Under the pieces are notes generated by a model. That model searched no databases and was not told the DNA's origin. It worked only from the letters and a program-made list of their open reading frames with translations. From contig OZ024758.1 of NCBI GenBank assembly GCA_964016885.1, positions 1,364,001 through 1,428,000 on the forward strand: a DNA stretch of 64,000 nt, written 5' to 3'. The position numbers and the translations under genes are program-made. The DNA is from Eledone cirrhosa (Eukaryota). Position 1 is the first letter of the stretch. Every line of letters begins with the position of its first letter. Positions 3,446-55,009 of this stretch are shown piece after piece.

Positions 3446-3730
3446 CTGTATATATAAAAAAGATGCCTATACTCTACCATTCGCGTATAATAGGGAGAGA
3501 TGAGGAGAGCAAAAGAGACTGATGCAGGGAATATAAAATGTATGGCTTTATCCTGATTGATATTATAAGTGGCTGAGTATTCCACAGTGAGGTGTACCAT
3601 ACACAGAACCACACGTGACCCCTAAGTAACTAATTCATTCAGCAGCAATTGTGAGAAGCTGGGCTTCACAAAAGCAGAATGAATGCGGTTAATTATTAAA
3701 CTAGAATCCCAAGCCATTAATAAAACAAAA

Positions 3731-5107
3731 ATACCTCGATCTGTCAACCAAACCTCGATCTGTCAACCAAACCTCGATCTGTCAACCAAACCTCGATCTG
3801 TCAAACATACCTCGATCTGTCAACCAAACCTCGATCTGTCAACCATACCTCGATCTGCCAAACCTACCTCGATCTGTCAACCAAACCTCGATCTGTCAAC
3901 CATACCTCGATCTGTCAACCAAACCTCGATCTGTCAAACATACCTCGATCTGTCAACCAAACCTCGATCTGTCAACCATACCTCGATCTGTCAAACATAC
4001 CTCGATCTGTCAACCAAACCTCGATCTGTCAACCAAACCTCGATCTGTCAACCATACCTCGATCTGTCAACCATACCTCGATCTGTCAACCAAACCTCGA
4101 TCTGTCAACCATACCTCGATCTGTCAAACATACCTCGATCTGTCAACCAAACCTCGATCTGTCACCATACCTCGATCTGTCAACCATACCTCGATCTGTC
4201 AACCAAACCTCGATCTGTCAACCATACCTCGATCTGTCAACCATACCTCGATCTGTCAACCATACCTCGATCTGTCAACATACCTCGATCTGTCAACCAA
4301 ACCTCGATCTGTCAACCAAACCTCGATCTGTCAACCATACCTCGATCTGTCAACCATACTCGATCTGTCAACCTCTGTCAACCATACCTCGATCTGTCAA
4401 ACATACCTCGATCTGTCAACCATACCTCGATCTGTCAACCATACCTCGATCTGTCAACCAAACCTCGATCTGTCAAACATACCTCGATCTGTCAACCATA
4501 CCTCGATCTGTCAACCATACCTCGATCTGTCAACCATACCTCGATCTGTCAAACATACCTCGATCTGTCAACCATACCTCGATCTGTCAATCAAACCTCG
4601 ATCTGTCAACCATACCTCGATCTGTCAAACATACCTCGATCTGTCAACCATACCTCGATCTGTCAACCATACCTCGATCTGTCAACCATACCTCGATCTG
4701 TCAAACATACCTCGATCTGTCAACCATACCTCGATCTGTCAACCAAACCTCGATCTGTCAAACATACCTCGATCTGTCAACCATACCTCGATCTGTCAAC
4801 CATACCTCGATCTGTCAACCAAACCTCGATCTGTCAAACATACCTCGATCTGTCAACCATACCTCGATCTGTCAACCATACCTCGATCTGTCAACCATAC
4901 CTCGATCTGTCAAACATACCTCGATCTGTCAACCATACCTCGATCTGTCAACCAAACCTCGATCTGTCAACCATACCTCGATCTGTCAACCATACCTCGA
5001 TCTGTCAACCATACCTCGATCTGTCAAACATACCTCGATCTGTCAACCATACCTCGATCTGTCAACCAAACCTCGATCTGTCAAACATACCTCGATCTGT
5101 CAAACAT
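3731..5107. repeat. Tandem satellite, 19-bp unit ACCTCGATCTGTCAA(C/A)CA(T/A), about 72 copies
   Basis: Period of 19 read directly; explains the 480-aa ORF. Confidence 0.97.
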
Positions 5108-5344
5108 TCCTCAACTGGCCAGTAATACGTACATATACACACGTGTATAGATACAAACATAATTACGTACATGTACACAAGTTAAAACTTACACACCCAC
5201 AAATGGCGTCCGTATTAATGATCATGCATTCGTGTGCAAATGCATAAATTGTTAGTTTGCATATATTAATTTACATAGACACTAACCCCCCCCCCCCCCC
5301 CACCGCACACACATATATGTATATATTCACATTAAGTGATTCCC

Positions 5345-5390
<46 letters not shown>

Positions 5391-5581
5391 GTAGGTCCCG
5401 GGTTGAGTCGGGGATAACCACAGTAAGTAAGGTACTCAATACATGGCAGAGTAAAATTTTTTTATTTTATAGAAGGAGCTTCTACAGGACTAGTACTGTT
5501 TCATTCAGATGAAATCTTCAGGAAGCTCCTGAAGATTTCATCTGAATGAAACAGTACTAGTCCTGTAGAAGCTCCTTCTAT

Positions 5582-5587
<6 letters not shown>
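5391..5587 (-). mobile_element. Family-A HHR-bearing short element (Penelope pLTR/retrozyme-like) with fold-back, between (TA)n tracts
   Basis: Perfect palindrome 5463-5587 (61-bp arms, 3-nt loop). Its 3' tail 5391-5447 matches 13985-14042 in the opposite orientation. Confidence 0.7.
5475..5529 (-). ncRNA. Type-I hammerhead ribozyme (family A)
   Basis: GGAGCTTC-CTGAAGA-T TTC atct GAA T-GAAA-CAG tactagtc CTG-TA-GAAGCTCC: 8-bp stem I, 4-bp stem III, GUA triplet. Confidence 0.85.
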
Positions 5588-12691: not shown

Positions 12692-13504
12692 CTAATCAGC
12701 ATAATAAAGTAAGTGAGCATAATAGAGTTTGATCTTTTGACTAGGTTGTTAGTGACACTTGTCGTAAAATCCAATAATTTATACTTCATTTTAATAATAT
12801 GATTGGATTTTGATGTGGGGGTTCTGTAGGTTTTGTTTTCCTTTCTAGGTCAGTATCACTAATGAAGATCGTGTTTGAATCAATATTACTATACGGTAAC
12901 AAAGTTTTATAAGTAAACGGATATATTTATTTATGAATATCAATGACGAGAGACATATAAAGACTCGTTATATATATATATATATAAGTTATTATATATA
13001 AGTGTATGTTTGTATATGCATGTGTGTATATGTGTGTATGTGTGTGTATATATATATATATATATTTGCTTATTAGTGGATGTCTATGTATATATGTGTA
13101 TGTGTGTATATTTGCTTATTGTTGGATGTGTGTATATATATATATATATATAAGTATATGTGTATATATATATTTATTTATTCGTGAATGTGTGTGTATA
13201 TATGTGTATATGTATATATATATATATATATGTATATATATTTACTTATTGAAGAATATGTGTGTATATATGTGTGCGTGTATGTGTGTGTATATATGTG
13301 TATATGTGTATGTGTGTATGTGTATATATGTAAATGTCTCTCCAGCAGAGAGAGACATTTTTGCTAGGGGGAGGAACTGTGGTTTAGCGGAGGCTTGTTT
13401 CGAAATAACTTTAGTCAAATGGTCCATGAGGGGTACTGAGGATGTCACGGGTGTGTGATGAAAGAACTTTGATAGACTCTCTCCCTATATATATATATAT
13501 ATAT

Positions 13505-17476: not shown

Positions 17477-17585
17477 CTCTCAGCATATTAGATAATAACA
17501 TCAAACCAATGCTGATTCGTGAGATATAACAATAGGGAGCATGTCCCACGTCAGCAACCAGTTCATAATTCTATGTGTAACAGGT

Positions 17586-19232
17586 ATGATGACATGTAGT
17601 GATATAATAGGAAATGGGAGAAATACACCTGAATGATGACATGTAGTGATATAATAGGAAATGGGAGAAATACACCTGAATGATGACATGTAGTGATATA
17701 ATAGGAAATGTGAGAATTACACCTGAATAATGACATGTAGTGATATAATGGGAAATGGGAGAATTACACCTGAATAATGACATGTAGTGATATAATAGGA
17801 AATGGGAGAAATACACCTGAATGATGACATGTAGTGATATAATAGGAAATGGGAGAAATACACCTGAATGATGACATGTAGTGATATAATAGGAAATGGG
17901 AGAATTACACCTGAATAATGACATGTAGTGATATAATAGGAAATGGGAGAAATACACCTGAATGATGACATGTAGTGATATAATAGGAAATGGGAGAAAT
18001 ACACCTGAATGATGACATGTAGTGATATAATAGTAAATGTGAGAATTACACCTGAATGATGACATGTAGTGATATAATAGCAAATGGGAGAAATACACTT
18101 GAATGATGACATGTAGTGATATAATAGGAAATGTGAGAAATACACCTGAATGATGACATGTAGTGATATAATAGCAAATGTGAGAAATACACCTGAATGA
18201 TGACATGTAGTGATATAATAGGAAATGTGAGAAATACACCTGGATGATGACATGTAGTGATATAATAGCAAATGGGAGAAATACACCTGAATGATGACAT
18301 GTAGTGATATAATAGCAAATGTGAGAAATACACCTGAATGATGACATGTAGTGATATAATAGCAAATGGGAAAAATACACCTGAATGATGACATGTAGTG
18401 ATATAATAGGACATGGGAGAAATACACCTGGATGATGACATGTAGTGATATAATAGCAAATGGGAGAAATACACCTGAATGATGACATGTAGTGATATAA
18501 TAGGAAATGGGAGAAATACACCTGGATGATGACATGTAGTGATATAATAGCAAATGGGAGAAATACATCTGAATGATGACATGTAGTGATATAATAGGAA
18601 ATGTGAGAAATACACCTGAATGATGACATGTAGTGATATAATAGGAAATGGGAGAAATACACCTGGATGATGACATGTAGTGATATAATAGGAAATGTGA
18701 GAAATACACCTGAATGATGACATGTAGTGATATAATAGCAAATGGGAGAAATACACCTGAATGATGACATGTAGTGATATAATAGGAAATGTGAGAAATA
18801 CATCTGAATGATGACATGTAGTGATATAATAGGAAATGGGAGAAATACACCTGAATGATGACATGTAGTGATATAATAGCAAAAGGGAGAAATACACCTG
18901 GATGATGACATGTAGTGATATAATAGGAAATGGGAGAAATACACCTGAATGATGACATGTAGTGATATAATAGGAAATGTGAGAAATACACCTGAATGAT
19001 GACATGTAGTGATATAATAGGAAATGGGAGAAATACACCTGGATGATGACATGTAGTGATATAATAGGAAATGGGAGAAATACACCTGAATGATGACATG
19101 TAGTGATATAATAGGAAATGGGAGAAATACACCTGGATGATGACATGTAGTGATATAATAGCAAATGGGAGAAATACACCTGAATGATGACATGTAGTGA
19201 TATAATAGGAAATGGAAGAAATACACCTGAAT
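17586..19232. repeat. Tandem satellite, 47-bp unit ATGATGACATGTAGTGATATAATAG(G/C)AAATG(G/T)GAGAAATACACCTG(A/G), about 35 copies
   Basis: Period of 47 read directly; explains three overlapping minus-strand ORFs. Confidence 0.97.
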
Positions 19233-19388
19233 CATCAACTTTCAATGAAAAGTAATCATTCCTAATTACTTCTCACCGAACAATCAATCTAAAGAATCAG
19301 TCATTTTTTAGAAAAAGTGGATTAGACATGATTCTATATTTTTAATTATAAGTATTCTACTAGATATATATTCATATTTCAATAGGTT

Positions 19389-22887: not shown

Positions 22888-23008
22888 AGTTTTGCGAGGT
22901 TTTTGATATGAAATCGTGTGTCGAAACAAATATTGTTATACTTGGGGAGGGTCATTAGGTTATTAATTCTGGCAATATTACACAAATATGACCCTCCCCA
23001 AGTATAAC
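22888..23008 (-). mobile_element. Family-E element with fold-back
   Basis: 21-bp inverted arms GTTATACTTGGGGAGGGTCAT at 22935-22955 and 22988-23008. Confidence 0.65.
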
Positions 23009-24038: not shown

Positions 24039-24098
24039 CTGATGATTTCATATGAATGAAACAGTTCCAGTCCTGTAGAACCCATTTCTATATTAAAT
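24039..24098 (+). ncRNA. Family-A HHR with intact core, stem I 5' strand lost
   Basis: CTGATGA-T TTC atat GAA T-GAAA-CAG ttccagtc CTG-TA-GAA. Confidence 0.65.
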
Positions 24099-27901: not shown

Positions 27902-28090
27902 ACGGAAGAAATGTGGTAAAGAACCAGGTGGACCATAACGCACCAAAGTACTCAATACTTAGGGTAGTAGAGTGGGTAATAGGAACGAGTAGGCTGAGCT
28001 CAAGCCGTTTCGACGGCTAATTCTGGACTAGTCCAGAATTAGCCGTCAAAACGGCTTGAGCTCAGCCGTCGGGGTCCTACTCGTTCCTAT
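27901..28090 (-). mobile_element. Family-C element: fold-back carrying HHR 3' halves
   Basis: Palindrome 27979-28090 centred on ACTAGT; (G)AAA-CGGCT tgagctc AGCCG-TC-GGGG. The terminus recurs at 34802-34840 and the HHR half at 61895-61945. Confidence 0.65.
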
Positions 28091-28112: not shown

Positions 28113-28337
28113 ATTGAAATGGCTTCTACAGGACTAGAACTGTTTCTTTCAAAATCAATCATCATTCCTTGGTGGTTTCCTTTGAATGAAACAGTTCTAG
28201 TCTTGTAGAGTATAGGCACCTTAATATATAGAGAGAAATGACATCACCAAGACTAGAACTGTTCCATTCGCATGAAATCATCAGGAATGTTTTGAAGATT
28301 TCATACGAATGAACCGATTCTAGTCCTCCTGTAGAAT
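28113..28337. mobile_element. Two adjacent degenerate family-A fold-backs (about 28113-28212 and 28247-28337)
   Basis: Each has gactagaactgtt.. and its inverse ..gaatgaa..ttctagtc; TCATCAG at 28278-28284. Confidence 0.6.
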
Positions 28338-28361
28338 ATATATATATATATATACACTCTT

Positions 28362-28441
<80 letters not shown>

Positions 28442-28445
28442 TCTT

Positions 28446-28495
<50 letters not shown>

Positions 28496-28525
28496 AGATC
28501 AAAAGATGGTTAAAGGAGTTCCATG

Positions 28526-28596
28526 TATTTTATTATGCGCATTTCAAAAACAAACATCATCATGCAATAATATTTGTGTTTTCATCAGATAAAACA
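28526..28596 (-). ncRNA. Type-I hammerhead ribozyme (family D, left arm)
   Basis: Exact inverse copy of 28702-28772. Confidence 0.8.
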
Positions 28597-28701
28597 GGAG
28601 AACATGATATGAAGGCTAAAAAACACTTGTGGATAGTGCACTATGTTGATTTAAAACTGCACTATCCACAAGTGTTTTTTAGCCTTCATATCATGTTCTC
28701 C

Positions 28702-28772
28702 TGTTTTATCTGATGAAAACACAAATATTATTGCATGATGATGTTTGTTTTTGAAATGCGCATAATAAAATA
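28702..28772 (+). ncRNA. Type-I hammerhead ribozyme (family D, right arm)
   Basis: TGTTTTAT-CTGATGA-[36-nt stem II, 15 of 16 pairs including G-U]-GAAA-TGCGCA-TA-ATAAAATA; palindromic ATGCGCAT stem III, AUA triplet. Confidence 0.82.
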
Positions 28773-28893
28773 CATGGAACTCCTTTAACCATCTTTTGAT
28801 CTTATATTATGTATACTCCAGTCCTACAAACTGTAGAGTGCTTCTTATCCGATATCTGCATTGCTTTATTGTACTACAATAAAACTCACCTCC

Positions 28894-28940
<47 letters not shown>

Positions 28941-28944
28941 TCTT

Positions 28945-29000
<56 letters not shown>

Positions 29001-29467: not shown

Positions 29468-30031
29468 AATTGGGGATTGGCCGAGTCCGTAGAGCATCGG
29501 ATGATATGCTTTGCGGAATAGAGTTGCGGCCCTTTAACGCACAGGGTAATGCATTGGGATAATTGCTGGCCTTGTGCCCAAAGTAGAAACAATTATTATA
29601 CAGGGAGAGGATTGGCAGAATCGGTAGAACTTCAGACAACATGCTTTGCAGCATAGAGTTATGGACCTTTACATTATGAGTTCAAATCCCGCCAATGTTA
29701 GCTTTCCCTTTCATCCTTGCTGGATCGATAAAATAAAGTACCAGTAATGTACTGGGGTCGATTTCATCGACCTTTTCCCTTCCCCAAATATTGTTGATCT
29801 TGAGCCTAAATCAGAAACCATTATTTCCTTTCTAATTTAAAGGGCGGTGGATTGGCAGTATCGGTAGAGAGTTGGACACCATGCTTTGAAGCATAGAGTT
29901 ACGTCCCTTTATGATCTGAGTTCAAATCCCGCCGAGGTTAACTTTGCCTTTCATCCTTACGGGGTCGATAATATAAAGTACCAGCAAGGTACTAGGTAAT
30001 TGCTGGCCTTGTGCCTAAAATAGAAACAATT
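29468..30031 (+). mobile_element. Cluster of three head-to-tail Meta-type SINEs
   Basis: Copies at about 29468-29596, 29602-29822 and 29841-30031. The last is flanked by ATTATTTCCTTTCTA direct repeats. Confidence 0.85.
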
Positions 30032-30095
30032 ATTTCCTTTCTATTTTACAATGGTTCGTAACCCAGAAATAGCATCAAACAGTTTAAACGAGAAG

Positions 30096-34858: not shown

Positions 34859-35090
34859 ATTTATTAAAATAACAGGTTAAAGTTTAAGCAAAGAATCGCT
34901 GCTTTCACCCTTGACGGGATCTTCTGAGTTTCAGAAGATCCCGTTAAGGGTGAAAGCAGCGATTCTTTGCTTAAACTTTAACCTGTTATTTTAATAAATA
35001 TTCGCTCTAGGGTTCTTATATATTTGATATATATTTATCCTTATCGAGCCCTCTTTGGATTTTAGTCTTCACATTTATTATTATTATTAT
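34859..35090 (+). mobile_element. Family-B HHR element with fold-back and 3' tail
   Basis: Palindrome 34859-34999 (69-bp arms, one mismatch, 3-nt loop). The tail cttatcgagccctctttggattttagtcttcacatttatta recurs inverted at about 53945-53985. Confidence 0.7.
34926..34978 (+). ncRNA. Hammerhead-like fold with variant CAGAAGA core (family B)
   Basis: GAGTTT-CAGAAGA-T CCC gttaa GGG T-GAAA-GCA gcgattctt TGC-TT-AAACTT. Confidence 0.65.
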
Positions 35091-53941: not shown

Positions 53942-54128
53942 TAATAATAAATGTGAAGACTAAAATCCAAAGAGGGCTCGATAAGAATTATATATATATC
54001 TATCTATATATATAATATTATATTATATTATATTTAAGTTTAAGCAAAGAATCGCTGCTTTCACCCTTAACGTTAGTATCAGAAGATACCGTTAAGGGTG
54101 AAAGCAGCGATTCTTTGTTTAAACTTTA
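53942..54128. mobile_element. Second family-B fold-back element
   Basis: Arms at 54036-54072 and 54090-54126; CAGAAGA core at 54080-54086 on the plus strand. Confidence 0.7.
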
Positions 54129-54501: not shown

Positions 54502-54879
54502 ACAAAGAAAAACCAAGACAACGAACGATACAAAACAAAACGAAAAACAATCTTTTAATGGGAAATCTTAAGCAATTATTTTAGAAAACTAAATATATAT
54601 ATACGAAGGACAGAACTTCATGGTCATCAGCCGTTGAGGTGGACTGGGGCAGTTTCGACCCATATTTAGTAGTAATAATAGATATAAAGAAGTCTCAAGA
54701 GAAGTCTTGTTAAGAGTTGTGTTGATATAAGTATATATAAATTATATATATAAGTATATATAAACCCGTACAGCAAATATTTATTATTAGCACAGATTGA
54801 AAATTATATATATAATATAATATAAATATATATATAAATTCAAAATATTAAAAAATATAGACATTCATGTGATCAAATA

Positions 54880-54945
54880 TATTTTATTATATATATTTCA
54901 GAGGTACTGTGCTGTTTTCTCAGTACGACCTCATCAGATAAAATA
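54880..54945 (-). ncRNA. Type-I hammerhead ribozyme (family-D architecture)
   Basis: TATTTTAT-CTGATGA-[31-nt stem II including GTACTG/CAGTAC]-GAAA-TATATA-TA-ATAAAATA. Confidence 0.72.
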
Positions 54946-55009
54946 AATTGATGTGTGACAAACCCCAACTGTGCTGATGGTTCAATTCCAGTCTTATATA
55001 TATATATAT

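Follow-up and report, generated by a model that had tools for sequence, protein, structure and literature searches.

What kind of event leaves a perfect 153-bp hairpin, with a hammerhead ribozyme motif on each strand, in the middle of a run of TA dinucleotides? We addressed this question for one locus of Eledone cirrhosa within a window of 64,000 nt, the whole stretch of DNA that was analyzed (assembly GCA_964016885.1, contig OZ024758.1, positions 1,364,001 to 1,428,000 of the forward strand); the window is DNA of animal type, rich in AT and in microsatellites, and all coordinates below refer to it. The answer that we favor, as probable rather than secure, is that the hairpin is a copy of a 256-nt high-copy repeat fused head-to-head with a shortened, inverted copy of itself in (TA)n. 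It is likely a Penelope-like insertion consisting only of a pseudo-LTR (pLTR), with a mirror arm that likely arose by fold-back self-priming.

Anatomy of the hairpin

The left arm (28488-28640, minus strand) and the right arm (28658-28810, plus strand, defined by self-complementarity) pair at 153/153 bp (100%) around a 17-nt loop at 28641-28657, so the perfect hairpin with identical arms described by the first-pass annotation is confirmed. The arms lengthen to 158 bp, with one mismatch, if the TA flank is included. The direct copy of the repeat unit is pLTR-like and spans 28642-28897 on the plus strand (256 nt), comprising the family 5′ end, a hammerhead, and a tail; its 5′ limit is that of loose ends in public sequence runs X1, X4, and X7, and its 3′ limit that of loose ends in X1. 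The left arm, identical at 153/153 positions, is an inverted and shortened copy of unit positions 28658-28810, joined head-to-head with the direct copy. Since the 5′ end of the family lies at 28642, the loop is the unit's own 5′ start: it consists of one extra base and the unit's first 16 nt, which are not duplicated.

The junction contains a palindrome, as annotated, but this is 12 nt long and located at 28633-28644, rather than 10 nt at 28634-28643; its first 8 nt lie within the left arm and its last 4 nt outside it. Within the palindrome, 28637-28644 forms an 8-nt direct repeat of the arm start at 28658-28665. Both flanks are (TA)n (left, 28455-28487; right, 28898-28937), in keeping with the AT-rich or (TA)n targets of EN+ Penelope-like elements. 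We note that a 16-nt motif is present in triplicate near the insertion, set between stretches of (TA)n (28355-28370, 28439-28454, and 28938-28953). It represents either a target duplication, which would be a long one, or a compound minisatellite of older date.

The unit belongs to an abundant repeat family

Words of the stretch were present in 20/24 listed public runs, labelled with 16 organisms, and four of the 24 (X1, X4, X7, and X22) were aligned to 28596-28906. Run X1 held 4,122 contigs with the unit among 16.3 million records, and similarity reached 95% or more in 2,940 of these contigs, which identifies an abundant and fairly young repeat. Far fewer contigs with the unit came from X4 (5) and X7 (29), and the raw-read run X22 (1.9 billion letters, from a study of organism C) contained 0 reads with the unit. 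With depths of 2 to 19 in X4 and X7, and 0 raw reads for organism C, the X4 and X7 matches may be trace DNA, and the same two observations leave horizontal transfer of the unit across the labelled organisms unsupported. Pattern scans gave 0 matches to the ribozyme motif in metagenomes, 0 matches in viral contigs, and 0 in prokaryote genomes; two metagenome loci found with another motif have only 22 nt in common with the unit and were set aside as chance. There is no second copy of the unit within the 64-kb window.

The ends of the family were read from 13/84 loose ends and 21/4267 pieces, those being the ones listed. Among them, the 5′ end at 28642 recurs in X1 (21 contigs), X4 (1 contig), and X7 (2 contigs), and is thus common to 3/3 runs with records. 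At the other side, the X1 loose ends listed stop at 28797 (39 contigs), at 28815 (33 contigs, followed by TA), and at 28898 (9 contigs, followed by TA). From these ends it follows that the left arm is an inverted copy without the unit's first 16 nt and without the tail, and that its outer end coincides with the family end at ∼28810-28815.

Summed X1 depth was ∼1,470 at 28641, compared to ∼0.9 to 1.2 million just inside the unit (∼0.15%; depth is not copy number), so the palindrome is not the family's usual or mobile form. The exact junction of the present locus was spanned by no record among those listed. One X7 contig (depth 4.1) joins the unit's first 12 nt to 28658; it shares both breakpoints of the present locus, lacks the extra base, and continues after these 12 nt into unrelated sequence. 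Two X1 indels at 28641, possibly opposite-strand copies that were misaligned, were left out of the junction variants.

The hammerhead motifs and their predicted folds

A predicted type I hammerhead was recognized at 28702-28772 on the plus strand by descriptor, folding, and family variants, and its mirror copy at 28526-28596 on the opposite strand by descriptor and arm identity. The motif begins with an 8-bp stem I containing one G-U pair, followed by CUGAUGA, stem II (3 bp, a C.U mismatch, and 12 bp, capped by a 4-nt loop), GAAA, and an 8-nt palindromic stem III at 28756-28763; the predicted cleavage site, after 28764, is AUA. Both motifs have the type I core (CUGANGA, GAAA..UH, three helices) and end in stem I. 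A strict descriptor found 2 matches in 64 kb, both in this hairpin, compared to 0.015 matches per window in 200 block-shuffled windows, none of which had an 8-bp stem I. The divergent pair of hammerheads that had been annotated, with 8-bp stem I, long stem II, and palindromic stem III, is therefore present, one motif on each strand. As in EN+ Penelope-like elements, a hammerhead with a palindromic helix III lies inside the terminal repeat.

Rfam returned no hammerhead at the gathering score or among 43 matches up to E = 10; its miRNA matches were generic hairpin matches below the gathering score and were discarded. Position 10.1-11.1 is A-U in the motif at 28702-28772, not the G10.1-C11.1 pair that PMC4209133 calls highly conserved in metazoan Penelope-like element (PLE) hammerheads. 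Many PLE hammerheads listed in the PMC8557442 supplement likewise have no such pair.

Folding predictions point to a ribozyme that would form between two strands. In the monomer 28702-28772 the pair probability of stem III was 0, and the two-strand minimum free energy (MFE) was -33.7 versus -21.2 kcal/mol, with an 8-bp intermolecular stem III in the predicted structure. The anatomy thus agrees with the annotated Penelope-type hammerhead with a dimer-type stem III. In RNA of a lone unit, stem I was predicted to be mostly misfolded (mean probability, 0.04).

All four listed family variants above 5% frequency within 28702-28772 keep the fold: one changes a G-U pair to A-U in stem I, one changes A-U to G-U in stem II, and two fall in loop II. 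With ∼23% of all substitutions in the motif neutral, chance would give this result for three transitions and one transversion with p ∼0.012, although the four variants are possibly linked and hence not four independent events. A loose end before 28734 in run X1 marks a subfamily with an altered 5′ strand of stem II and a G after the core; by eye, its stem II changes still pair with the 3′ strand of the present copy.

For RNA read across the hairpin, folding gave an MFE of -265 kcal/mol and probabilities of 0 for the hammerhead stems. Both ribozymes would be masked, as the first-pass annotation had proposed, since the predicted fold replaces all hammerhead stems by the 153-bp duplex. Because the two motifs lie on opposite strands, they cannot dimerize within one transcript and are never both in sense on one RNA. 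Taken together, these predictions suggest that the ribozyme likely matters in the RNA of the parent element, as a dimer, rather than at the present locus. If such hairpins are transcribed, editing or small-RNA pathways would gain long double-stranded RNA from them, which the first-pass annotation named as a possible ADAR or Dicer substrate.

The one-sided tail

The direct copy continues beyond the right arm into an 87-nt tail (28811-28897, plus strand), longer than the 30 to 40 bp usual for the one-sided tails of EN+ Penelope-like elements. Both the tail and its AATAAA (28878-28883) are as annotated, but the AATAAA sits on the 3′ side of a small hairpin (28865-28883), and what follows is (TA)n rather than poly(A). 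The final 20 nt, beside this hairpin, are 80% A/C. An ATG at 28809, on the border of arm and tail, weakly opens a frame of 30 codons (P = 0.21 by shuffle). Such a position would be expected if the tail were the start of an ORF, a reading that is unproven. Three protein searches found no relatives of the tail peptide, including two in which the query contained 10 microsatellite codons and gave no match; a phmmer match, P0001, was rejected as a repetitive protein matched over 14 residues. We also considered the tail as a retained intron, given its GT start and the branch-like and pyrimidine stretches at its end, but with a weak donor and no final G this is remote.

No Pfam match above the cut-off, and no reverse transcriptase (RT) or GIY-YIG ORF, was obtained from the 136 of 252 candidate window ORFs scanned. 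With neither such an ORF nor a relative of the tail peptide found, the link to Penelope rests on architecture. Judged from the sequence, the locus likely behaves like a PLE pseudo-LTR insertion, and its formal membership hinges on a linked RT-endonuclease ORF.

Origin of the hairpin

The hairpin, the hammerhead motif, the abundance and ends of the family, and the (TA)n flanks are observations, from which we infer an insertion in three steps. A Penelope-like RT-endonuclease would nick (TA)n and reverse-transcribe unit RNA from the tail end at 28897 to the 5′ end at 28642. The 3′ end of the new strand would then fold back 16 nt inside, pairing through 2 to 4 nt of microhomology at TGCA (28658-28661), and copy itself. 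Copying would halt in a TA-like patch at 28802-28810 that could anneal to the target's other end. The second hammerhead would accordingly be a by-product of inverted copying and not part of a designed ribozyme pair.

Several observations bear on this scheme. The inverted, shortened 5′ copy placed head-to-head and the palindrome at the junction are features of EN+ Penelope-like elements. All four listed 5′ loose-end rows (4/4) resemble the reverse complement of the unit's first bases, as judged by eye and with two of them weak: the X1 majority line matches at 10/12 positions (agreement only 0.52), X4 at 8/9 (weak), and X7 at 7/7 adjacent positions, and the fourth is the X7 contig whose first 12 nt lead to 28658. 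The arms carry the same allele at 11/11 polymorphic sites tested, an outcome expected in 0.045 to 0.47 of random template pairs. In other copies, the bases just upstream of 28642 mismatch the junction, so that the primer for fold-back is an assumption. The snap-back priming proposed in the first-pass annotation is plausible and agrees with the published reading, and fold-back traces recur at the family 5′ end. The palindrome named there, however, owes most of its length to the inversion itself, and a competing account has both target strands acting as primers. The identical arms are also consistent with a young insertion.

The main rival, much less probable, is that the arms are two cDNAs of a Penelope-like element, primed from both cut strands of the target at two preferred start sites, ∼28810 and ∼28897, whose 3′ ends were then linked through a few bases of microhomology. 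Such joining resembles twin priming by L1. The outer end of our left arm is one shared across the family, a point against fold-back copying in that priming from both strands would suit it too; indeed, both outer ends of the hairpin match family-wide ends. The 28810 end is also TA-like, however, and so is predicted by fold-back as well. A 4-nt fold-back of the left cDNA with 3 nt of pairing would reproduce the 12-nt palindrome, but other copies have short fold-backs at their 28642 terminus, which represent self-priming at that very end, and the shared alleles of the two arms favor, weakly, a single template. In PMC11167929, both strands are cut and extended by a purified PLE protein from anole, and the tail is what lies between one RT start site and the other. 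One of these sites is in an AC-rich stem-loop, to which the A/C-rich end of our tail beside its hairpin may be compared. The corresponding account of the family, to which we give the same limited credence, is a very abundant miniature Penelope-like family with fixed ends, whose hairpins record insertion from two primers with cDNAs preferentially joined where 28658 meets 28642. Were it true, thousands of young polymorphic copies could settle the origin of pLTR inversion and of the tail from genome data alone. On balance, we regard fold-back self-priming as the likeliest origin.

We think it improbable that the unit represents the monomer of a non-LTR retrozyme or a SINE-like element bearing a hammerhead, or that the palindrome is itself a mobile unit of the MITE or fold-back type. 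Retrozyme monomers, themselves pLTR-derived according to the retrozyme papers, would match the unit in size (170 to 256 nt), in its fixed 5′ end, and in its type I hammerhead, and no parent ORF was found among the 136 window ORFs. Against this, the head-to-tail joint of end to start is absent among the joints listed (contigs show presence, not absence), and the ends enter (TA)n; a mobile palindrome is at odds with the ∼0.15% depth in X1.

That the hairpin is an assembly or library artefact, a fold-back chimera, is very unlikely: its arms are 100% identical and its exact junction is in no record among those listed, but one X7 contig (depth 4.1) breaks at the same two positions, the flanks beyond the two arms differ, and the arms of 5/7 other hairpins in the window carry a mismatch, which a chimera would not produce. 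Least probable of all is that a template switch during replication or repair, acting through the TGCA microhomology, produced the inversion once the element had inserted. The instability of (TA)n flanks and the triplication of the flanking 16-nt motif would favor such an event, but the inverted part lies wholly within the element and reaches no further than the family end, and the 7 other hairpins are likewise confined to repeat fragments.

Other hairpins and repeats in the window

Counting every non-microsatellite hairpin whose arms are at least 20 bp long gave 8 in 64 kb, compared to 0.075 per shuffle in 40 shuffles. Besides the present hairpin there are 7 others, two of which (5463-5587 and 34859-34999) have hammerhead-like cores on both strands and one (54036-54126) on one strand. 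The present hairpin is the longest and cleanest example of a common local pattern.

The hairpin at 5463-5587, beside (TA)n, is perfect, with 61-bp arms and a 3-nt loop; its core layout resembles that of the listed Hydra-clade hammerheads, and decayed relatives lie at 24039 and 28125-28335. Those at 34859-34999 and 54036-54126 belong to one family with a longer stem III and, in both, CAGAAGA in place of CTGANGA, a possible core variant. A related motif at 54850-54990 (minus strand) has stem I and 3′ context in common with 28702-28772, with a different stem II and a palindromic stem III of TA only. The hairpins at 27992-28067 and 22935-23008 (41-bp and 21-bp arms) are repeat fragments in which no intact hammerhead core was found. 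Single hammerhead-like cores at 13436 (+), 14788 (-), and 54232 (+), which failed the strict descriptor, come from two or more further families. At 3683-5247 and 17571-19272 there are long minisatellite arrays, apparently noncoding, whose open frames span 400 to 550 codons, and three partial, tandem SINE-like copies ∼240 bp apart lie at 29474-30048. The SINE-like repeats near the hairpin are presumably like ones in octopus genomes.

A single locus of this kind carries little weight, since it is likely the scar already known from Penelope-like insertions and has seven other hairpins beside it in the same 64 kb. The family is of more use: young, abundant, and polymorphic, with fixed ends, it makes possible a direct count of fold-back versus two-primer events.

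Comparison with known systems

We found no published description of the 256-nt unit family in the open literature and its supplements. The locus fails the tests made for a retrozyme (tandem arrangement), a MITE, and a Hydra-type element. Non-LTR retrozymes (PMC7229834; bioRxiv 10.64898/2026.07.22.740005) are also short noncoding units with a type I hammerhead and related to pLTRs, but they form head-to-tail tandems and circular RNA, whereas the present copies are head-to-head, with no tandem joint among those listed.

Hydra-clade PLEs, including Penelope-13_HM and Hydra-1_Obim (PMC8557442), share insertion in (TA)n, a hammerhead ∼100 nt from the end, and an inverted 5′ copy that places a hammerhead on each strand; Penelope-13_HM is listed there with the same hammerhead on both strands. 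Stem III starts with AU here, in contrast to AC in 26/26 listed hammerheads, and 0/6 short motifs of our unit occur in the supplement of that paper. The same paper describes inverted 5′ copies, one-sided tails, and a (TA)n bias in PLEs, and still calls the formation of inverted ends undefined. Poseidon PAc of Anolis (PMC11167929) likewise has a tail between two preferred ends, an AC-rich end near a stem-loop, and an AT-rich target. Its ORF starts inside the hammerhead, whereas the frame opened by the core ATG of our unit ends after 13 codons, and none of our frames was confirmed as an ORF; hammerhead cleavage is dispensable for its insertion in vitro.

The hammerheads of metazoan PLEs (PMC4209133) agree with ours in being of type I, with a long helix II, a palindromic helix III, dimer dependence (here predicted), and opposite-strand pairs, which lie 100 to 700 bp apart; their cleavage is weak and dimer-dependent. 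Helix I is 8 bp here and 4 to 5 bp there, helix II 15 bp and 7 to 8 bp, and 10.1-11.1 is A-U as opposed to a conserved G-C. Pen2a_Av and Pen3a_Av of Adineta vaga (PMC3846280) have a ∼200-bp pLTR joined head-to-head with a shorter inverted 5′ copy, a palindrome at the junction, a tail on one arm, and an ORF start near the border of pLTR and tail; solo pLTRs exist, antisense small RNAs are also described, and the arrangement is read as self-priming. The present locus differs in having no ORF body or second direct pLTR, in a tail of 87 rather than 31 nt, and in a target duplication hidden in (TA)n. The hairpin architecture is thus already in print, as well as common in this window, and is ordinary in kind.
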